Positions 3 to 58,553 of a DNA stretch of 64,000 bases are shown piece after piece; the stretch's first letter is position 1, and each line of letters opens with the position of its first letter. Origin of the DNA: a virus (lineage: Duplodnaviria; Heunggongvirae; Uroviricota; Caudoviricetes); IMG/VR virus record IMGVR_UViG_3300045988_149282, positions 33,636-97,635 of that record; one strand, given 5' to 3'. Under the pieces are notes generated by a model. That model was given only the letters and a program-made list of their open reading frames with translations, did not search any database and was not told the DNA's origin. Position numbers and translations under genes: made by a program.

Positions 3-3000
3 TTATCAACCCTCAACAGCACCGTGACCCAGCAGGGAAAAGACATTACGTCTAACTCCAACAGCATCACTTCGCTGTCAAACCAGATGGTTAACGGCCG
101 CCAGAACATGTGGGTGCGTAGCGTATACAACGTACAACTGGCGAACAATACCACTGAGCCGACCTTTAGCGATATCAACGGTAAGGCGCCAATCTCGATC
201 GATGAGGTTCCTGACGCGGCAAAACTGGACTTTGCGAGCGCCGGCAGTTACGTGATCGCGCATTACAAAGCCTTCGTGAAAGTCAATGCTGATACCACCA
301 TCACTATGGCACCAGGGTCTCGTGTTTTTGATGATACGGGCGCCGTGTACGTGAACGGTGTTAGGGTTGCCTTTGGTAATGCGAGCTGGAATACGGTTAG
401 CTTTGATCTGAAAGCTGGCTGGAGCACGGTTGAGTTCTTGGTGAACCAATGGACTGGTCAGGCTTACATTAACCTCGGCTTTAAACTGTCCGAGAAGGTA
501 GCCCAGCTGAATTCTGCTCTTGGGATGAACGCGCTTTCGAATGCCATTAGCGCCGTCACCTCAAACGTCAGCACCGTAGGTGATCGCGTCACGAGCACCT
601 CGCAGAGCGTTACTGATCTGCGAAACAGCCTCGAACAGACCAACGCTAATCTGGCGAATAAGGCAGATGCACAGGCGCTGTCTACGCTGCAAAATACGGT
701 CTCCAAGCAGGGGGATACGATTTCCAGCCAGGGTAACAGCATCACGAACCTGAATAACACCCTGACCGCTGCCAGAAACTCCGGTGACAACCTGATCCCG
801 AACTACGATTTCCTGCAGGGTGCAACTGCGTGGGATATCCAGTATCCGGCGGGCGTCGCTTTCGGCAACTTCGGTGATGGTAAGGCTGGGGTTAAACTGA
901 ACCGGACGACCACTACCAGCCCAGGCATCTTCTCCAACAACAACAAGCCGCTGCCGCTTAATGGTCAGCGCAAATATCGTGTTGTGGTTAAAGCCAAGGG
1001 CGTGTCCGGGGCGATGAACATGTTGATCCGGCGCCAGAACAAAATCGGCCAGACCGACAGCAATTATGAAGATAAAAACGTCACACTCACCAGTGAGTGG
1101 CAGACCATTACCTGGGAAACTGGGCTTACTGCCTCTAACGCTGATGGTCAGAACTTTAAGCTTTATGCGCACCCGGCTAATGCCGAAATCTGGGTTGATA
1201 CCTTTAAGGTCTTTGATATCACGGATGAGGTGAAGATCAAGGCTAATAGCGATGCGCTGTCTACGTTGTCGAGCACGGTGACACAGCAGGGTGACAAGAT
1301 CACCAGCCAGGGCAACAGCATCACTAAGTTGACCAATGACCTCGAGGCCGCTGACGCAAACATCGCGAAAAAGGCCGATCAGTCGGCAGTCACTACGCTG
1401 ACAGGTCGGGTAGAGAAGACGGAGTCCGGTCTGACGGCGGCGAACAGCAACATTACGTCGCTTAGCAGCTCTCTGAGCCAGCAATCCAAACGCGGCGCTA
1501 ATCTGCTTCCTGATGGCACTTTTGAAAGCTACGCGGTTGGCCATAATCTATCAAATAATCGCGTTATCGTTACCACTGATGACTCTCACGGTGGAAATAA
1601 GTGCATCCGTGTGACGCGTCCGAACGACTACAACGCCAACGCAACAGATAACAGCGATAACCATATTTTTAGCGGATTTCAGGTTCGCGATAACGCAGTG
1701 TTCTACATGGAGTGCTGGGTTAAGCTGGATGCCAATAGCACAGCCATGGCCGAGAACACGCAGATCTCTATCGGTTTGTCGCTCCAGTATCAGGATAACT
1801 CGTGGCAGTGGCCGGCAGTAACTAAAGCTGCGAAAGATCTGTCTACAGCTCAATGGACGAAGGTTTCTGGTTACCTGAAATCAACGAAGAGCGGTATTAA
1901 GCAGGCAATGGTGAGGATTTCTATTCCTAACGTTAGCAGCGTTAAGGCGGGAAACTCATTCCTTATTGATGACCTGGTCATTACCGAAGTAACTGATGCC
2001 TACAATGCGCAAAGTACAGCAGATGCTAACGCCAATGCGATTTCGACACTGGACTCGACCGTTTCCCAACAGGGCGACCAGATCACCAGTCAGGGTAACA
2101 GCATCACCAAACTGACAAATGACCTGGCAACGACCAATAACAACGTCAGTAAAAAAGCGGATCAGAGCGCTTTAAGCGTGTTGTCCGGGCGCGTCGATCA
2201 AACAGAATCGGGCTTATCCTCTGCGAATAGCAGTATCACTGCGCTTAATTCATCTGTACGCGCAGGGAATGCGACAAGTGGCGATTTGATTAGCAACCCG
2301 ACATTTGACCCAGAGTTTAGTCAGATGGGCTTCACTGTGGTTCCCAGCTCGTCTGAGGGCGTGCCAGCCAATTGCCCATACGCTTATGTTGCACGCATTG
2401 CGGCTCGCGACCATCACCCAAATTTTGCTGCTATTCCGGCGACATTGGGGGATGTCTATGAAATGTCTGCTCTCGTCGCGTGTGGCACTGGCTCCGCTGA
2501 TTTCAACCTGTATCTCGGAACCGCAACACGGCCAAGCGGCAGCGTGGGCGCGCCTCTGTCATCTGGCGGCAACCGCAAGGCGTCGGCCACATGGCAGCGA
2601 GTAACCTGGCGTTTCAAAATTACTCAGGGGATTGTCGATCGCGGCTTCTTCCGTCCATTCCTGCAAATCAACCAGTCCAGCCCGTTCGGCACCGTCTGGT
2701 ATGTGACCGACTGGCATCTGCGGAACGTAACCGACTCCTCCAAAGTTCAGGATTCTCTCGATGCTACGGCGAAAGCGGTTGATTCGCTGACCTCTACGGT
2801 AAATCAGCAGGGGGAGAATATCTCCAGCATTGGTACACGTACTACCAATCTTGAGAATAATTTGAGAACAACAAATGCAAACGTTGCTCAAAAAGCGGAC
2901 GCCAATGCTCTGACGGCACTGACCAACCGTGTTACCCAGACCGAAAAAGACATTAACTCAACGAGTTCTTCTGTCACGAATCTGAACAACAAGGTTGATG

Positions 3001-9890: not shown

Positions 9891-10080
9891 TATCTGTAAT
9901 CGAGTAAATGCCGTCATCCAAGTTCACCGAACTTGATTATTCTTCACCGAACTTCACTCAAGGTAATCTTGAATCATCCTGCTTAATGATGTAGATTTAA
10001 CCAACAGCTGACGATGTCGTCAGCCGTTAGACCTGAAAAGGTGCCGCAATGACACTTGTGTTAACGGCTAAGGTGGATAT

Positions 10081-10500
10081 ATGCTAAATTATCATGACAA
10101 TACGCGTTCTATGCAGACGATCCGCACCAATACTGCGGTTATCGACAGCTTTCCTATGCGTATTCACAACAGTGAAGACGCAGTAGAAGTGCGACGTATG
10201 TTGTGCCGTGAATCAGCTAACCGCCAGCACTTCATCGTCACTTTTAAGAGCGATGTGGCGCGTGCCGAAAAGATCTCTAATTCTACGTCACTGGTTAAAC
10301 CGTTGGCCGAGGTTGTCACTAACGGTAAACGAACCTCTTTTGTTTTAGATGTTGCTGAACAATATCCTGACTTGAAGTGTTTAGATCGTGATATTTCTTC
10401 ACGAATCAAACAAGTTGTAGAGTCTTTTATGAAGAAATTCTGTAAAATCGATGATATGGAACCATCAACGGCACAGAATACTTCATGGCACCATCTCTAA
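10081..10500 (+). CDS. hypothetical protein (cargo cassette gene 1)
   Basis: 139 aa ORF, no recognisable motif; overlaps next gene by 16 nt. Confidence 0.4.
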   Translation: MLNYHDNTRSMQTIRTNTAVIDSFPMRIHNSEDAVEVRRMLCRESANRQHFIVTFKSDVARAEKISNSTSLVKPLAEVVTNGKRTSFVLDVAEQYPDLKCLDRDISSRIKQVVESFMKKFCKIDDMEPSTAQNTSWHHL

Positions 10501-11258
10501 TTGGTCAGGCGAACAGATTAATCCCTGAAATAGAAGACTACAGCAAGGTCTTGTCTGAAATGCCGAGAGCGACGAGAATTATCGCTCTCGGTGAGTTCTA
10601 TTTTATCTCCCGAGGTTTCGATCTAATTCGATTTACCGAATACGAGCTTGTTGATTCGGCCTATGAACGCTGTATTGTTGGCGAGTGTCTTGAGTCATGT
10701 GATCCTGATTACCAAGAGCAGGAAGTTAAGCGACTCAAACGTGCTGGTTACACACCTCTTGAGATAGGAGCAGAAATTGAATCCTACAAGTTGCATGTGG
10801 GGCAGCCAGTCCAAACAGTCTTCCGCGTGGCCTACTGCGAGTTTCCAATCAAGGATAAATCTGGAGTAAAAGTCAGCGCCAAGCAGATTAGAGGGGTTTT
10901 TACTCATGCTGATTATATGGGATTAGGCATCGCAAGTTTTGCTTACCTTTATCTCGTAGATAAGTATCAGTACTTGGTTTGCGATACGTTACAGACGGTA
11001 AAAGGCGCAACTCTTTGGGCTGTGAGTATGCGCAAACATGGACTGGTCGAAATTTACGATACGAAGAACGAAAATTTTATAGAGGAATTGGGTGAGGATG
11101 CCTGTGGCGTAAGTGGTTTTATTCCGTGGGATATCGGTAAGTCTGACGGAGGCCAGATGCGAAGACGTGAAGAGTGGGGGACTAATAAAATCAATCTCAC
11201 CCCAGGTGCTTGTACTCATATAGTGAACATTCTGAGTAAACGATCTATGAATCAATAA
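10485..11258 (+). CDS. hypothetical protein (cargo cassette gene 2)
   Basis: 257 aa ORF, translationally coupled to the upstream gene, followed by a strong terminator; no recognisable motif. Confidence 0.45.
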   Translation: MAPSLIGQANRLIPEIEDYSKVLSEMPRATRIIALGEFYFISRGFDLIRFTEYELVDSAYERCIVGECLESCDPDYQEQEVKRLKRAGYTPLEIGAEIESYKLHVGQPVQTVFRVAYCEFPIKDKSGVKVSAKQIRGVFTHADYMGLGIASFAYLYLVDKYQYLVCDTLQTVKGATLWAVSMRKHGLVEIYDTKNENFIEELGEDACGVSGFIPWDIGKSDGGQMRRREEWGTNKINLTPGACTHIVNILSKRSMNQ

Positions 11259-11283
11259 ACCCGCTACGGCGGGTTTTTTGTTA
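11259..11283 (+). terminator. rho-independent terminator
   Basis: cccgctacggcggg hairpin followed by TTTTTTG. Confidence 0.7.
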
Positions 11284-11406
11284 TTAAGCCCACCTATGTA
11301 CCTATCATTAAACCTTTACACCGCAGCCGTAGGCATTTAGGCTATATCACATATAAGAAAACAAGTTGTTTCAGACGATAATTATATACGCAAAGGGAAC
11401 TCTCCA

Positions 11407-12075
11407 ATGACCAAGATCTTTGTGGTTGGCGGCACAAAGGGCGGGCCTGGCAAATCCACCGTTGCCCAGCAAATTGCCGTTTGCCTGAAAGTCAAAAAGA
11501 AGAAGAAGGTTTATATTACCGATATAGATATTCAGCGCACGACAACGAGCTGGTGTGAAGACCGTCGACAGAACGAAGACCTTGAGCTGATTCCTTTTGC
11601 ATACGTTCAGGATGACATCATTAAGCACCTAAAATCGCTTCAGGGTAGAGCTGAGTTTGTAGTGGTAGATGCTGGTGGCTTCGACTCCGAAATTCAGCGA
11701 CAAGCGATGCTGATGGCTGACGTTATCATTATCCCGCTGCGTCCTAAGCGTCGTGATTTGAAATCTTTACGTGACATCGATCCTATTATCGACAATGTTC
11801 GCAATGTAAACGATAAAGTGAAGGTCCGCGCGGTCATGAACCAGTGCCCGGCTTTGCCATCACAAGTGTCTCGCATTCTGGCGGCTAAAGAGATTGTTGA
11901 GACGTTTGGCATCGAGTCTGCGCCAGTCAATCTATATAACCGCAACGTCTATGATGATGCGGAAGAGTCTGGTCGCTCTATCTTTGAAATGACCGGTAGC
12001 GAGCGCGACAAAAAGGCGGAAGCCGAGTTTGAAGAATTTGTAGATTATCTGTTGAGTCTGGAGGAAGAAGAATAA
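11407..12075 (+). CDS. parA: ParA/Soj-family partition ATPase (small, type Ib-like)
   Basis: 222 aa; deviant Walker A GGTKGGPGKST at N-terminus; followed by small partner gene. Confidence 0.7.
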   Translation: MTKIFVVGGTKGGPGKSTVAQQIAVCLKVKKKKKVYITDIDIQRTTTSWCEDRRQNEDLELIPFAYVQDDIIKHLKSLQGRAEFVVVDAGGFDSEIQRQAMLMADVIIIPLRPKRRDLKSLRDIDPIIDNVRNVNDKVKVRAVMNQCPALPSQVSRILAAKEIVETFGIESAPVNLYNRNVYDDAEESGRSIFEMTGSERDKKAEAEFEEFVDYLLSLEEEE

Positions 12076-12434
12076 TGTCCATGAAAATGGGTGACCTAGC
12101 AAAGCGCAAAGAGCCTGATGCACCGGCTAAGAACACAACTCCTTTGCGCCAACCAGTCAGACCACAGGGACGCCCGACTCGTGGCAAAGAGAAAATTAAA
12201 AGCCGCACAATGTCACTGGAGGACGAATACTTCGAACTGCTGGAGATGATGAAGTTCATCCCTCGCTTCGAGAAGTTCACTCGTTCTGACGTGATTCGAG
12301 CAGCCATTTTCCATCTGGCAGAGAAGTCACCGCAGGAAATCGAGGACATCGTGAAATTGAATGAGGCGATCACCGCTGCCGATGTCACGATGCGTACCGA
12401 TGAAATCAAACGAGAGTTGATGAAGAAAGGTTAA
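12075..12434 (+). CDS. small partition DNA-binding protein (ParB/ParG-like partner of ParA)
   Basis: 119 aa, basic N-terminus, start overlaps parA stop (ATGA-type coupling); assignment from operon position. Confidence 0.4.
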   Translation: MSMKMGDLAKRKEPDAPAKNTTPLRQPVRPQGRPTRGKEKIKSRTMSLEDEYFELLEMMKFIPRFEKFTRSDVIRAAIFHLAEKSPQEIEDIVKLNEAITAADVTMRTDEIKRELMKKG

Positions 12435-12486
12435 AAATCATGCATTGGCGCGTACATTGCGCCAATGCATAACTACAGTGTCAGCT

Positions 12487-13254
12487 TTATGCCGCGCTAA
12501 CACTATGTTCAGTCCTAACCACCCCAACCTTCACAAAAGGGCTACCGTAGCTTGGTGGCTTCTTGATTAATTTGCCTACATACAGTTTTCTAATATGCTC
12601 ATCGGCTATTCTGCCAACAAATTCATAACGTTTTGTGTCGGGGCCAAGAGCTATATCCCTTGTAAAGTACTGCTGAGAACCGGCTTTGACCCAGCATTCA
12701 ATCTGATAAACTTCCATTATCAGCCCACCATATGTAGCGTAGGCATATTTGAGATTCTCGTCTCTTGGAACCTTTGCCCATACGCCACGCGTAGCTTCAT
12801 ATAATGCCAGAGCGGACATTCCTGACTTGTAGGTGCTGTTTAGCAGGAAGGCAAGACCGGCGTGCTCAGGAGCAATTTCAGTTTCCTCTTGCAGCACTAA
12901 GTGATGGTAGGCGTCCAGTGATATTCTGCCCATCATGGAACCACTTCCTCGTACCTTATTCGTAAGCTCTCCGACCCCCATAAGGTCGATGCATGTCGCC
13001 TCAACAAGTTTGGCTGTGGTTTCATCCATACCATGACGAAGTATATCTATGCCTAATTTTTTATTAGCCAAAAGTTCTTTGATCCGCATGGATTTGGGAG
13101 AGTCATCGGGATACTTGATGTGATCGAGACAACGAGTCGATTTGCCTTTTCCTATGTAAAACGGTCTTTTCATCTTGTCTTCTGTATCATAGAGACAGTA
13201 AACATAGTATTTAGCCTTATCCAATGATCTCGCGTATACCGATAAATCGTCCAT
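12487..13254 (-). CDS. GIY-YIG nuclease-domain protein (free-standing; homing-endonuclease-like or defence nuclease)
   Basis: 255 aa; N-terminal YVYCLYD...PFYIGKGK...R...H matches the GIY-YIG catalytic motif; unrecognised C-terminal domain; only minus-strand gene in this block. Confidence 0.55.
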   Translation of the reverse strand: MDDLSVYARSLDKAKYYVYCLYDTEDKMKRPFYIGKGKSTRCLDHIKYPDDSPKSMRIKELLANKKLGIDILRHGMDETTAKLVEATCIDLMGVGELTNKVRGSGSMMGRISLDAYHHLVLQEETEIAPEHAGLAFLLNSTYKSGMSALALYEATRGVWAKVPRDENLKYAYATYGGLIMEVYQIECWVKAGSQQYFTRDIALGPDTKRYEFVGRIADEHIRKLYVGKLIKKPPSYGSPFVKVGVVRTEHSVSAA

Positions 13255-13364
13255 TATTGCATCTCTTTGCTACTGACTAATGCGTTCTATTTTACACATA
13301 AGTTTTTAATCAATTTAACAGGCTCAAAGTGTAGAGCTTCTGGGCGTCTAAGACGACAAGTTAT

Positions 13365-13420
13365 GCCTGCTTCTGTATATATAAATAATAAGTAACTTAT
13401 TAAATATATACGGAAGCAGG
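13365..13420 (+). terminator. long-stem hairpin, terminator-like (copy A of a duplicated element)
   Basis: 17-bp stem cctgcttctgtatatat / atatatacggaagcagg with AT-rich loop, followed by TCTTTT; near-identical element at 58497-58553. Confidence 0.5.
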
Positions 13421-13527
13421 TCTTTTAAAAGACACCACCAGAACAACTCCCTTCCGTTTCCACTTCCAAAAACTGCCACCAGTCGCTATCATCCGCTCAT
13501 TGTGATAAGTAAGTAACTACCTACCAG

Positions 13528-14277
13528 GTGAGCCACATGAGCCAAATCTTTTTCGATACCATCGACAACGACCAGTACGACTTCATGACAGAGTGGAATA
13601 CCGCTGTTATGGACAAGTGGGTCGCTGAAAACATTGGTTTGTCGCGCTGTAAAGACGAGGCTGAACTCTTCGAGACGAAGTGGTTTGATTACCGCGACAT
13701 GCATCCTCTCATGGCCACCTGTCTTTTTACGGAGGCATACAAACGTCAGTACTCAAATATCATGCTGACGCACGGTCGCGAACACTTTGAAACAGCTCCG
13801 TTCACCACCGGGTTAAAACGCCTGCCTTATCAGGAGTTGTCGACTGCCAATAAAACGTCGCTATGGAAAGCACGCCAGTTTGCGGATCGCTATTGCTGCT
13901 CATACGACTACTTTATCTCCACCGTTCTTTCCGCAGCTGCACGACGGCTGTGGGACAAGCTGCCGCGCCCACAGCATTTATGGCAGCCAGAACTGATTGA
14001 GATATTTGAAGAGAAATTAGCCAGACGCGCAACAACCCGTCTGGATGACTCTCTGGTTAGCTTTAAGCATATGGGAGACATGCAGTTCAACCCGATTCAG
14101 GAAAGCTATTTTGAGTGGATTCTGGAGCGTTTGCGCACCATCCCTCGCAGCAAGCGCATACGCGCAATTTTCTCCGCTATCTGGCTAATGGAAATCGTTC
14201 CAGAGCGCCTTATTTCCGCCCACTTTCCAGAAGAACTGGAAGAAGCACGGCGGTTTATTGATCCCCTATCTAATTAA
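13528..14277 (+). CDS. hypothetical protein (possible replication accessory/helicase loader by position)
   Basis: 249 aa ORF with RBS; directly upstream of DnaB-like helicase; no motif recognised. Confidence 0.4.
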   Translation: MSHMSQIFFDTIDNDQYDFMTEWNTAVMDKWVAENIGLSRCKDEAELFETKWFDYRDMHPLMATCLFTEAYKRQYSNIMLTHGREHFETAPFTTGLKRLPYQELSTANKTSLWKARQFADRYCCSYDYFISTVLSAAARRLWDKLPRPQHLWQPELIEIFEEKLARRATTRLDDSLVSFKHMGDMQFNPIQESYFEWILERLRTIPRSKRIRAIFSAIWLMEIVPERLISAHFPEELEEARRFIDPLSN

Positions 14278-14320
14278 CTAATACTAGAAAACAATTTGTT
14301 TAAAAAACAAAGGAAAGCAC

Positions 14321-15661
14321 ATGACCGAACTTTGCCATACAGGACGCGGGCTGTCCGAAGAGTTTGATGAAGATTTCCAGAACAGACTGACGGCATATTT
14401 TTGTCGTGATCACGAGTTTCTTACTCGTGCGGGAGATCTGGTTGTGCCTAGCCAGTTTGCCAATGCGGCCAATGCCATATTGGTTAATATGGTTTCGGGC
14501 TATTACCGTATGTACAAGAGCGCGCCCTCTTCATCTGCAATTCTGGATATGCTTAAGCGTGCGAAACGCGATAAGACTATCCGTGAGGAACTATTCGCCG
14601 ATGTTGTTGCTGCGTTTAAGCGCATTCTTGCAGAAAAATTGTCCGATACCTCGTACATGGTTGACCAGGTATCAACCTTCGCAAAAAGTGTAGCGTTTGA
14701 TGATGCTCTGATTAAGGCTGCTGAACTGAAAGAGAAAGGCGACTTTCAGGGGGCGATGGCAATCATGGCCAAGGTTCAGCAGATTGGATCGAACGAAGCG
14801 ACCGGAATCTATGACTACTACACCTCCGCAAGTGAGCGATTGAAAGCGCGTGAATATGAGGCTTCAGAGGAGTATGTACCAAACAGTATTACAACTGGAC
14901 TCCCTCTTCTCGATAGGTTGCTGTACCAAAAAGGCTGGGCAAAGCGCGAAATGGTGCTCTTCATGGGGTTCGCTAAATCCGGTAAATCGACCGCAATGGG
15001 TGAGTTTTCCATAAACGCAACGCTTGCTGGCTACAATGTTCTGTATCTCTCGCTGGAGGTTCACACCACCATTTTATCCGACCGTTTTGATGCAAGATTG
15101 TCGGAGACAGAAATGTCCAAGCTGGTGGAACGGCGCGATGAGGTTCATCGTAAGTTGGCAGAGTTGGGAGCCACGAAGGGGATTGGTAGTTTGTGGGTGG
15201 TTGAGCGTCCGTCAGGAAGTATGTCACCGGCAGATCTGGACCGTATGCTTAACAGCATGAAAGCCAACGGCATGGTGCCTGACATGGTTGTTGTCGACTA
15301 CGCAGATTTGATGCGTGCCAGTTATGACCTTCGTGATGATCGCGCCAACATTCGTAGCATCTACACCGATTTACGTGCTCTTTATGACAAGCATAACGTT
15401 GCTGGGATCACGGCATCGCAGACAAACCGTGAAGGTGGCGCGTCAGAAGTTGCCACAATGATGCACGCTGCCGACAACATCGAAAAAGTACGTATTGCTG
15501 ACCTGGTAATAACGATCAACAAAACCGAAGAAGAAGAAGCGAAAGGAGAGGCTCGTCTCTACTTTGCCGGTTCACGTAACCAGCAGGGAGGGATCAGCAT
15601 TCGCGTTAAACAAAACCTCGAACAAATGCGCTTCATTGAGCGAATCTTAGACGTTACCTAA
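14321..15661 (+). CDS. dnaB: DnaB-family replicative DNA helicase
   Basis: 446 aa; Walker A GFAKSGKST, Walker B MVVVDYADLM, SQxNR-like ASQTNREG motif. Confidence 0.7.
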   Translation: MTELCHTGRGLSEEFDEDFQNRLTAYFCRDHEFLTRAGDLVVPSQFANAANAILVNMVSGYYRMYKSAPSSSAILDMLKRAKRDKTIREELFADVVAAFKRILAEKLSDTSYMVDQVSTFAKSVAFDDALIKAAELKEKGDFQGAMAIMAKVQQIGSNEATGIYDYYTSASERLKAREYEASEEYVPNSITTGLPLLDRLLYQKGWAKREMVLFMGFAKSGKSTAMGEFSINATLAGYNVLYLSLEVHTTILSDRFDARLSETEMSKLVERRDEVHRKLAELGATKGIGSLWVVERPSGSMSPADLDRMLNSMKANGMVPDMVVVDYADLMRASYDLRDDRANIRSIYTDLRALYDKHNVAGITASQTNREGGASEVATMMHAADNIEKVRIADLVITINKTEEEEAKGEARLYFAGSRNQQGGISIRVKQNLEQMRFIERILDVT

Positions 15662-15667
15662 AAAATA

Positions 15668-15695
15668 AGCGTGGAGAACACCTCCACGCTTGATT
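15668..15695 (+). terminator. hairpin (possible terminator/attenuator) between helicase and primase
   Basis: agcgtggag aacac ctccacgct stem-loop; weak T tract. Confidence 0.3.
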
Positions 15696-15742
15696 CATTG
15701 GTGAAACAACTTTTCTTTTGCCAAACCACAAAAGAAAAACAC

Positions 15743-16924
15743 ATGAACCTTTATATTATATCAACATTTAGGTTGGTCACAATATTGCCTGTTAAAAGTG
15801 GAATTATCGTGAGCGAGCTGAAAGAGCTAATTACCGAATTAGATTTTGAACAATGGTTGGATACTGAAGGTATCGTTTATCGACGTGGAGGCGTGAGTAC
15901 TCGCGGTCGTGAAGTGAATATCAAGGAGTGTCCGGTATGCGGCAGCTCCAACTGGAAGGTATATTTCAATCTGACCAGTGGCGTCGGTAAATGCTTCGCT
16001 GGTGATCATCCCGAAGAGATTCAGTTCAATAAGCTGGTCTTCCTCAAGCACTACAGCGGCAAATCACGACGACAGTTCGAGGAATATGTGCAGAACGCCC
16101 TTCTTTCCCAGGGGTGGGCACCAAAGAAAGAAGAGCTAGTGCTTGCAAGCACAGTCGAGTTAGAGGAGCCAGTTGCACTCCCTCGTCATTACGAGCTTCC
16201 TATAGATGGCCGTCTTCCAGACTATCTGGTTGAACGAAACATATCGCCTGAAATGGCAAAGTATTTTGACCTACGATACTGCGTCGAAGGCAAGCACGCC
16301 TATGTAGATCCGTATACAGATCAGGTTAAAGGACAGATATTCGATATGCGAATACTGATACCGGTTTACGATCTGGATGGGGTAATGAAGACATTTCAGG
16401 GACGAGACATTACCGGTACAGCAGAACGCCGCTACCTCTTTCCTATGCAACTTCCAGCTTCAGGTAAGTTTCTCTACAACGGCCATAATGCAGTCGGCAA
16501 ACAGACTGTAGTTGTCTGTGAGGGGGCGTTCGATGTTATGGGGGTTAAACGAGCTATTTTTGACGAAGAAACATTACGTGATTACGTGGAACCAATAGGA
16601 ACGTTCGGGATGCATCTATCTGGTAACACCACTCAGGATGCAGAAGATCAGTTAGGCGCGTTCCTGACGCTCAAGGCGCGTGGGTTACGTAATGTGATCA
16701 TGATGTGGGATAGTGAAAAGCAAGCTATACGCAACACGATGGCCGCAGCCAGGCGACTGACCAGTATTGGTCTTAATGTCAAAGTGGCGTGTTTGGGCGA
16801 GGAAGGACTCGACCCGGGCGATGCAACGCCAGAGCAAATCATCAAAGCCTATTATCGGGCAAAACCGTATACCAAACAGTTGGAGTTGCAAAGCAAGGTT
16901 TTGGGCATTAAGGCTCTATCATAA
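15743..16924 (+). CDS. dnaG: DnaG-like DNA primase (zinc-binding domain + TOPRIM)
   Basis: Zn-finger CPVCGSS...KCFAGDH; TOPRIM motifs VVVCEGAFD and MMWDSE; start placed at ATG 15743 because track start 15671 lies inside a hairpin. Confidence 0.65.
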   Translation: MNLYIISTFRLVTILPVKSGIIVSELKELITELDFEQWLDTEGIVYRRGGVSTRGREVNIKECPVCGSSNWKVYFNLTSGVGKCFAGDHPEEIQFNKLVFLKHYSGKSRRQFEEYVQNALLSQGWAPKKEELVLASTVELEEPVALPRHYELPIDGRLPDYLVERNISPEMAKYFDLRYCVEGKHAYVDPYTDQVKGQIFDMRILIPVYDLDGVMKTFQGRDITGTAERRYLFPMQLPASGKFLYNGHNAVGKQTVVVCEGAFDVMGVKRAIFDEETLRDYVEPIGTFGMHLSGNTTQDAEDQLGAFLTLKARGLRNVIMMWDSEKQAIRNTMAAARRLTSIGLNVKVACLGEEGLDPGDATPEQIIKAYYRAKPYTKQLELQSKVLGIKALS

Positions 16925-40898: not shown

Positions 40899-41433
40899 CA
40901 CCGCTGACAGCATACACAATCAACTACCGCTGATAGCATATCGAGAGTCTATCTCACCGCTCACAGCATACTTTACTCGATTTTTTACCGCTGACAGCAT
41001 ACTTAAGAAATTGCATGAATAATGTGTCCCGGTATGGGTATAACCAGAACAAAATTACCGCTGGCAGCATACGAATGTCTGACATATACCATTAATTACC
41101 GCTGATAGCATATCCAAACAAAAATTCCTCAATAAAACACCGCTGACAGCATACGTTCTATCAGGGAGTAGCAGGCAATAAATGCCTTTCACTACAAGCA
41201 ATCAGCGCAATAGCAATAGAATGTTAGTGAGCGCAAACCTATATGGAATGCACTCTTCGAGGTTAGTAACCACTGGGGAGGTATGACAGAGCATTGAGTG
41301 GTGATAGATGATTTACCGCTCACAGCATACGTTCATCTCACTATACCGCTGGTAGCATATCTTTAACCGTTCACAGCATACTTTTCAGAAAAATAGCCGC
41401 TGATAGCATACATTTCACCGCTGACAGCATATC
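40899..41433. repeat. iteron array (12 copies of ~17-19-bp repeat ACCGCTGA[C/T]AGCATA[C/T]) downstream of repA; incA-like copy-control locus
   Basis: Copies at about 40899, 40926, 40955, 40987, 41056, 41097, 41139, 41313, 41345, 41365, 41395, 41416 with irregular spacing. Confidence 0.75.
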
Positions 41434-42526
41434 AAAGCAGTTTGAGACTATTGGAAAGGATCTCAATCATCTTGATATTTTCAGGCGTCAAATTCTGCGA
41501 AAGTTCGGTTATCTTGTTGATAATGTTCTGTTTGGCATCAATTTCCCCAGCTTTCTCATCTGGTTTTTTGGGTTCGATGTCTTCAGGTTTTGGCGGTGCG
41601 ACTTTGAGTTTTGGATTGCGGCTGTGAATCTGGATATAGATCGACCGCCCACGCTTAATCTCGCTGTATTCGAGATAGCCCAAATCTTGGAGAGCTTTTA
41701 AGCCGTTACGTATAGTCTGATTCTGCGAGCTGACATTCCTGCTACTCAAATTGAGTCGCGCACGCAATCGAGCAAGCGATACCGGCGCAGGCTTGGTAGG
41801 AAGACTTTCGATGAAGGTGTACAGAGCCTGTGCTGTTTCTTTGCGTGGTAGCTTATTGATAACCTTTAACTGCAAAAGAACCTTATGGTCAAAGCGATAT
41901 AGTTCGGCCAGCTTCGGTTCTGCATAGAACACCACCGTATCTTTCTGCTCGTTGTAGTCCACGCTATTGATGAGGTGCACCATCAGAAGCGAGATCTTGT
42001 TAGAGCCGTCGACGTTCTTTTCTTCATACGTTCTCTGGAAAGACAGAGTTGTACGCATGATCTTCAAAAGACTGTTTGTAAGCCGGTCGCGGAGTGTTTT
42101 GCGGATCTGTGACGATGGATAGCCACAAAACTTAGCAAATTTCGTGATGCTTAACTCGACACGACCGTTAGGTTCGCCGTATTCTGCCAGCGAACGCACA
42201 ACGCCCACCCACGTTTTGAAATCATGATCCATGTCGAGACGAGGACCGGTTATCTTGATATCGGAATAGCCTTCAGAACGGGCTACTTCGAGCTGGACAA
42301 GCTCCTTTGAAGCATCAATCTCATTTGGCTTGTTACGTTTACTGTATTTTGTTCCCTTAAGCGTGGGGACGAACAACCCCAGTCGCATCAACGCAATTGG
42401 TTGGACTGTATTGTTGCTATTAGGGACAAGTTCCCCTGTGTACAATTCAAGGGAACCTTCTTCAAAGTTGTCGATGTTATCTTCTACTTCTTTGTTATTT
42501 TTACCTTTTTTATTTTTTGTGGACAT
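41432..42526 (-). CDS. repA: plasmid replication initiator RepA (iteron-binding)
   Basis: Gene bracketed by iteron arrays; basic Lys-rich N-terminus; start set at ATG 42526 (MSTKNKKG) because the track extension to 42646 runs through the upstream iterons. Confidence 0.65.
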   Translation of the reverse strand: MSTKNKKGKNNKEVEDNIDNFEEGSLELYTGELVPNSNNTVQPIALMRLGLFVPTLKGTKYSKRNKPNEIDASKELVQLEVARSEGYSDIKITGPRLDMDHDFKTWVGVVRSLAEYGEPNGRVELSITKFAKFCGYPSSQIRKTLRDRLTNSLLKIMRTTLSFQRTYEEKNVDGSNKISLLMVHLINSVDYNEQKDTVVFYAEPKLAELYRFDHKVLLQLKVINKLPRKETAQALYTFIESLPTKPAPVSLARLRARLNLSSRNVSSQNQTIRNGLKALQDLGYLEYSEIKRGRSIYIQIHSRNPKLKVAPPKPEDIEPKKPDEKAGEIDAKQNIINKITELSQNLTPENIKMIEILSNSLKLL

Positions 42527-42545
42527 GTGGACACCTTTGTCATTC

Positions 42546-42651
42546 AACCGCTGACAGCATACTTGATTTGCCGCTGACAGAATACCAAAAACAGTTGGCA
42601 GCATACGGTGAACCGCTGACAGACTATCAATTACCGCTGACAGCATACATG
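42546..42651. repeat. origin iterons (5 copies) upstream of repA
   Basis: Copies at about 42546, 42570, 42594, 42611, 42631 of the same ACCGCTGACAGCATAC repeat. Confidence 0.7.
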
Positions 42652-58496: not shown

Positions 58497-58553
58497 GCCT
58501 GCTTCTGTATATATAAATAACTACATATTAATTATTAATATACGGAAGAAGGC
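58497..58553 (+). terminator. long-stem hairpin terminator (copy B of duplicated element)
   Basis: gcctgcttctgtatatataaataa...atatacggaagaagg with T tract; first 24 nt identical to copy at 13365. Confidence 0.55.

Follow-up and report, generated by a model that had tools for sequence, protein, structure and literature searches.

A gene for a GIY-YIG nuclease that runs against the direction of its neighbours, at the point where partition genes give way to replication genes, raises the question of what it is there for. The first-pass annotation of this locus considered two options, a homing endonuclease or a defence/exclusion factor. We followed up this question in a stretch of 64,000 nucleotides (the window), which is part of an Escherichia SSU5-like phage-plasmid. 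As argued below, the gene probably specifies a modification-dependent (type IV) PD-T4-3/CMoRE endonuclease that is carried by the phage-plasmid as accessory defence cargo. The defence option is supported by the PD-T4-3/CMoRE homology and by the company that the gene keeps in its slot, and homing appears unlikely.

Genomic setting of the nuclease gene

The segment between positions 11000 and 15000 showed 99.7% identity to the E. coli plasmid NZ_CP015915 and 98.5% identity to the inducible Escherichia phage PhiR41_1. The same segment was matched by 737 plasmids of the PLSDB database, mostly non-mobilizable and about 110 kb in size. The nuclease ORF is flanked by parA/parB-like partition genes and by the replication genes for a helicase and a primase (Table 1), so that the placement between a partition and a replication module, as initially described, could be confirmed from the identity of the flanking genes (ParA and ParB-like on one side; phrog_2500, DnaB-like helicase and primase on the other). 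The description as the only minus-strand gene in a long plus-strand block holds from position 1 to ~22.9 kb, over which the nuclease ORF is the sole credible minus-strand gene; further minus-strand genes follow downstream.

Table 1. Features of the nuclease locus and further minus-strand genes (positions in the window; domains in residues of the nuclease)
Feature	Location	Strand	Remarks
ParA ATPase	11407-12075	+	
Small ParB-like gene	12075-12434	+	Left slot border formed by its stop codon
Exchangeable cassette	12435-13355		From just past the parB-like stop to about 10 nt before the long hairpin
GC-rich hairpin	12440-12470	minus	Where the parB-like and nuclease genes converge; inside the cassette
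GIY-YIG nuclease ORF	12487-13254	minus	255 aa, ATG start; stop codon included in coordinates
GIY-YIG nuclease domain	residues ~14-93		
Flexible linker	residues 94-106		
Modification-sensing domain	residues ~107-245		
AT-rich 5' spacer	13255-13355	minus	Belongs to the swapped cassette; presumed promoter and ribosome-binding site
Long AT-rich hairpin	13365-13420	+	Right border of the slot, beyond the 5' side of the nuclease gene
phrog_2500 gene	13528-14277		On the far side of the nuclease gene from parAB
DnaB-like helicase gene	14321-15661		
Primase gene	15671-16924		
442-aa ORF	22956-24284	minus	
Rep3-type initiator	41432-42646	minus	

The second opposite-strand gene in this mostly plus-strand genome, the 442-aa ORF, had no Pfam or PADLOC match, and scans with the same two resources of the other minus-strand genes of the window and of the neighbouring ORFs revealed no additional defence genes. 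A search of positions 11000-14500 against Rfam returned nothing credible. To the left of parA there is a second variable region (window ~10000-11300), which encodes proteins of 139 aa (phrog_2594) and 257 aa (phrog_3307) to which no function is assigned. Diverged relatives share no similarity with the window across this region, and at the equivalent site phage Cyrano carries a KacT toxin/antitoxin pair.

Relationship of the protein to PD-T4-3/CMoRE

The RefSeq name of the protein is 'LEM-3-like GIY-YIG domain-containing protein', and within PHROGs the whole sequence falls in phrog_5356, a family of unknown function. PF22945 (LEM-3-like GIY-YIG) was the only Pfam domain recovered (residues 32-104, E 5.5e-7, above the gathering score), a NUMOD, IENR1 or HTH module was not found in that scan, and NCBIfam gave no match. 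The earlier reading of an N-terminal GIY-YIG motif, followed by ~130 C-terminal residues unlike NUMOD modules, therefore stands. More informative was the PADLOC model for PD-T4-3 (PDLC04031), which matched residues 11-231 of the 255 with an E-value of 1.3e-23, at a score of 82 bits versus 464 bits for the canonical PD-T4-3 of an E. coli plasmid (L004). Pairwise, the window protein and that canonical member are 33% identical (BLASTP, E 2e-20), and the sequences of the CMoRE crystal structures 9U7U/9U75 were matched over residues 12-230 (phmmer, E 2e-15). When profiles of the window subfamily (25 members) and of the canonical members (16) were aligned, hhalign reported a probability of 99.7% (E 8.9e-27) over 222 columns that span both domains, and the best four Foldseek matches were all PD-T4-3 entries (probability 1.00). 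The profile and structure search of the C-terminal part that had been proposed as a check thus identified a domain with the CMoRE sensing fold, at 21-27% identity to the canonical members. On the basis of these homologies the gene is classified as a new, divergent member of the PD-T4-3/CMoRE nuclease family. The family itself is broad: a search of 1.84 billion representative proteins yielded 1781 clusters (at 50% identity) with E<=1e-3, which form a continuum of two-domain relatives, and 58 clusters with E<=1e-30.

PD-T4-3 was found by functional selection, and was later characterised structurally and biochemically and renamed CMoRE (PMC12923530). As a type IV restriction enzyme made up of a single protein, it binds and cuts DNA with 5-hydroxymethylcytosine (5hmC) or glucosyl-5hmC, at C N11/N9 G and leaving 2-nt 3' overhangs, and it lowers the plating of T2, T4 and T6 about 10^5-fold in the absence of abortive infection (PMC12923530). 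The closest known systems further include the EVE/YTH/ASCH-nuclease fusions among type IV enzymes, like VcaM4I (EVE-HNH) and McrB with its N-terminal YTH-like domains. We also observed that jumbo lytic phages of Serratia, Pectobacterium and Klebsiella encode PD-T4-3-like homologues that are full-length, with ~28-30% identity across residues 10-236 (records ON287375, MK994515, MF285618, MN642089 and JN627160). These are annotated as homing endonucleases and may instead be weapons aimed at rival phages whose DNA is modified.

The active site of the GIY-YIG domain is intact. Residues Y17, Y19, Y33, R41, H45, E85 and N99 show no variation, either among 25 members of the subfamily or in the alignment that includes canonical CMoRE, where the window residues Y17, Y19, Y33, R41 and E85 correspond to Y17, Y19, Y31, R39 and E93 of CMoRE. 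The GIYxY-YIG signature with its three tyrosines is therefore present, together with the catalytic Arg and Glu. At the dimer-of-dimers interface, V92 of CMoRE is conserved as V84, and L96 is replaced by C88, a Cys that is invariant within the subfamily. Like CMoRE the system consists of a single component, as there is only one ORF in the cassette and the chromosomal homologues are solitary (for instance adjoining mutS in Providencia, and in Shewanella).

The window protein deviates from PD-T4-3/CMoRE of E. coli (ECOR68, APEC O1 and O157:H7) in one of the two elements considered hallmarks, namely an inserted, negatively charged loop between alpha2 and alpha3 with four consecutive acidic residues (PMC12923530). 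In the canonical members this autoinhibitory loop reads GEVAATDDDELLS, versus KYPDDSPKS in the window protein, in which the acidic lid is cut to 'YPDDS', being 5 residues shorter with two acidic residues only; the subfamily consensus is of mixed charge. Since the CMoRE authors report the acidic loop for 'most' and not all members (PMC12923530), its absence does not bar membership, although self-protection, and possibly specificity, may differ. In addition Y127, the main-chain oxygen of which contacts 5hmC in CMoRE, aligns with V120.

Given these deviations, we considered whether the subfamily, while sharing family and mechanism, reads a modification other than 5hmC/5ghmC or is differently regulated on account of its truncated lid. 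Candidates would be other hypermodified pyrimidines, arabinosyl-hmC or momylated adenine. The low identity of the C-terminal domain to the canonical members, the substitution of Y127, the shortened loop and the width of the family continuum would all be compatible with such a shift. Furthermore, PD-T4-3Capno of Capnocytophaga shares 48% identity with PD-T4-3 and has remained modification-dependent as a nuclease, and it cuts the DNA of both T4 and Mu, the latter with modified adenine (PMC12366544). Specificity is therefore plastic within the family. PD-T4-3Capno is a divergent member that kept its function despite considerable divergence, whereas the window protein is more distant still. We regard an altered specificity or regulation as rather unlikely.

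The slot between parB and the long hairpin

Pairwise alignment with Cyrano and SSU5 placed the breakpoints at window positions 12432-12434, the parB stop, and 13356-13366. What is exchanged is a compact cassette bordered by that stop codon and by a 'TCTGG...' motif before the long hairpin; at the borders we saw no target-site duplications and no direct or recombination-site repeats. The GC-rich hairpin at the start of the cassette is predicted to fold on the minus strand with -25.1 kcal/mol (z -4.6), and is likely the intrinsic terminator of the nuclease gene, since it is followed on that strand by a U-run (GAUUUUUA). This role had to be inferred, as a simple promoter/terminator scan listed neither this hairpin nor the long one. 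A sigma-70 consensus promoter for the nuclease gene did not pass that scan either; the promoter is presumed to lie in the AT-rich spacer, convergent with parAB. Nearly every cassette type starts with its own short GC-rich hairpin of differing sequence directly after the parB stop (observed in L001, L008, L011, L033, L034, L055, L059, L066 and L079), and it looks as if the parAB transcript were insulated or terminated by an element that each cargo brings along.

The long hairpin that marks the right border (-30.2 kcal/mol, z -8.75) is a terminator-like element and was found in all relatives, at empty and filled sites alike. The duplication of this long-stem structure, as noted from the sequence earlier, is real: an exact repeat of the 24-nt left arm is located at 58497-58520 (by chance, 0 matches would be expected), within a second copy of the hairpin (58497-58553). 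In the first copy the hairpin is followed by the perfect palindrome GTCTTTTAAAAGAC, which extends the element to 13365-13434. It may act as a terminator or bind a protein, for instance as a centromere.

To make an inventory of the slot, 80 IMG/VR loci were collected via the neighbouring phrog_2500 protein and supplemented with the window and three reference phages; slot contents were clustered for the 78 loci (within the set L001-L084) in which both flanks were present. The distance between parB and the phrog_2500 gene took many discrete values. The GIY-YIG cassette occupied the slot in 25 of the 78 loci, and in 5 the slot was empty, the parB stop being followed by ~35-40 nt and then the hairpin. 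The search for presence/absence polymorphism at this intergenic site, which had been suggested at the outset, was thus positive, implying that the gene is accessory. In 17 loci the slot held a protein of 351/357 aa (phrog_22329) that had no Pfam or PADLOC match. Six loci carried a KAP-family NTPase (PDC-S49) and four PD-T7-5 (E 4.5e-139). A DUF2971 protein (PDC-S31) occurred in several arrangements, in either orientation and alone or combined. Two kinds of membrane-protein pairs, phrog_22270+phrog_17322 among them, were found in few loci, and a lipoprotein (phrog_1353) in one. The slot of Cyrano contains a DUF2971 gene and that of SSU5 three genes, the last of which is again a DUF2971 gene; both DUF2971 proteins match the PADLOC candidate system PDC-S31. 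The slot is a multi-cargo hotspot, shared with known defence genes. Considering that the known occupants are defence genes, new defence functions may reasonably be suspected for the uncharacterised ones.

That temperate phages have defence hotspots is well established, and the slot resembles those of P2 and P4 in that a fixed position among conserved core genes takes up alternative defence cargos, which are exchanged by recombination. It differs from these in its position between a partition operon and a replication module, and in being bounded by the parB stop and the long hairpin. In the literature that we searched, which was covered incompletely, we did not see the parB-hairpin slot described as a hotspot.

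Among 5426 complete E. coli genomes the par module was present in 264 and the cassette in 107, with all cassette copies being plasmid-borne. The cassette is thus carried by ~40% of the E. coli plasmids with this par module. A protein of >=99% identity is encoded by 135 PLSDB plasmids, and the 142-kb E. coli plasmid NZ_CP107722.1 carries a decayed remnant of the cassette (72054-72505), with only the last ~37 nuclease codons left beside a truncated parB. A 2025 preprint, in which 1,227 SSU5-group contigs were screened with DefenseFinder, lists at least 44 occurrences of PD-T4-3, and reports both PD-T4-3 and PD-T7-5 from E. coli/Shigella clades of the group. The fact that Shigella sonnei carries the same protein (P0040) makes it very probable that these PD-T4-3 calls represent the gene described here.

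Diverged backbones have recently exchanged the cassette. In five loci (L045-L048 and L051) it is 98-99% identical to that of the window, versus 86-87% for parAB and 84-87% for the replication side. Three others (L043, L050 and L053) have a mosaic structure, with the crossover at the slot or close to it. Irrespective of cargo, all backbones show 88-96% conservation across the final ~230 bp of parB, a likely crossover zone; in the diverged backbones that bear the GIY-YIG gene, the tract of high identity takes in the hairpin and extends up to about 13500. Most likely, exchange occurs by homologous recombination in the conserved 3' end of parB and the hairpin/rep leader region. Other cargos show a different pattern: the 357-aa cargo has diverged in step with its flanks (84% vs 82-85%), and the KAP NTPase further than its own. 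The recent spread is therefore a property of the GIY-YIG cassette.

Such a spread would be expected from the selective sweep of a useful defence gene, and equally from a homing element, which is why homing was retained as an alternative of low probability. According to this scenario a selfish, free-standing GIY-YIG homing endonuclease cuts the parB-rep site of genomes that lack the cassette, and is copied in by repair. The nuclease type, the free-standing opposite-strand gene at an intergenic site with empty alleles, the identity tracts that grade into the flanks of the GIY-YIG cassette while the 357-aa cargo co-diverges with its own, and the annotation of the distant jumbo-phage homologues as homing nucleases fit this scenario. 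However, both domains are homologous to a modification-reading restriction enzyme without strict sequence specificity. Homing endonucleases of the GIY-YIG type, like I-TevI and the Seg proteins, differ from the window protein, which has none of the NUMOD, IENR1 or HTH modules and possesses a modification reader as its C-terminal domain. Moreover, the close homologues stand alone in bacterial chromosomes. The gene is indeed present or absent at one fixed site, though many unrelated cargos share that site: at least 10 unrelated non-nuclease cargos use the slot, and its variability is therefore independent of the nuclease. On balance homing is very unlikely.

Least probable of all is that the nuclease mainly serves rivalry among mobile elements, by shutting out other plasmids or phage-plasmids, or acts as a stabilising toxin, as could be suggested by the adjoining partition genes, the toxin-antitoxin pair of Cyrano in the neighbouring variable region and a truncated autoinhibitory loop that could mean more activity on ordinary DNA; against it, PD-T4-3 left a test plasmid's vertical transmission unaffected in a native-host study, tested family members work through direct defence rather than abortive infection, and the single-ORF cassette has no antitoxin-like partner, for which reason a toxin-antitoxin or partition-linked role was rejected.

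A probable type IV defence gene as phage-plasmid cargo

Returning to the favoured reading, a modification-dependent endonuclease carried as defence cargo, we propose the following mode of action, in which the sensing and cutting steps are modelled on the characterised homologues (PMC12923530, PMC12366544). The nuclease gene would be transcribed from the AT-rich spacer of ~100 bp, convergent with parAB, and the protein would oligomerise. Its C-terminal domain would then bind phage DNA with hypermodified bases, most likely the 5-hydroxymethyl- or glucosyl-hydroxymethyl-cytosine of T-even phages, after which the oligomer would cleave both strands, with a constant spacing between cut and modified bases. 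Unmodified DNA of the host and the phage-plasmid would remain unbound and be spared. In this way the lysogen, and hence the resident phage-plasmid, would be protected from lytic phages with modified DNA (T-even-like). Substrate specificity and activity are here extrapolated from homologues that are ~33% identical to the window protein.

A wider reading, which we put forward tentatively and consider somewhat doubtful as a whole, joins several of the above observations. The slot could be a dedicated defence hotspot, with phrog_22329, phrog_22270+phrog_17322 and the lipoprotein being new anti-phage systems; the clade of the window protein, lacking the acidic safety-catch loop, could differ in modification specificity or self-protection; and the sensing domain of CMoRE, whose fold has been reported to lack relatives, could belong to the PUA-like readers (EVE/YTH/ASCH) as a divergent version.

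The gene is real, but largely explained by existing knowledge; as the family mechanism has already been described, it is not a discovery in kind. What it does indicate is that the hypothetical 'LEM-3-like GIY-YIG' proteins, which about 2% of the complete E. coli genomes encode, probably are type IV restriction enzymes directed at phages whose DNA is modified. The slot between the parB stop and the hairpin is compact and easy to recognise. Finally, the carriage of these enzymes by transmissible phage-plasmids bears on the host range of T-even-like phages in phage therapy.
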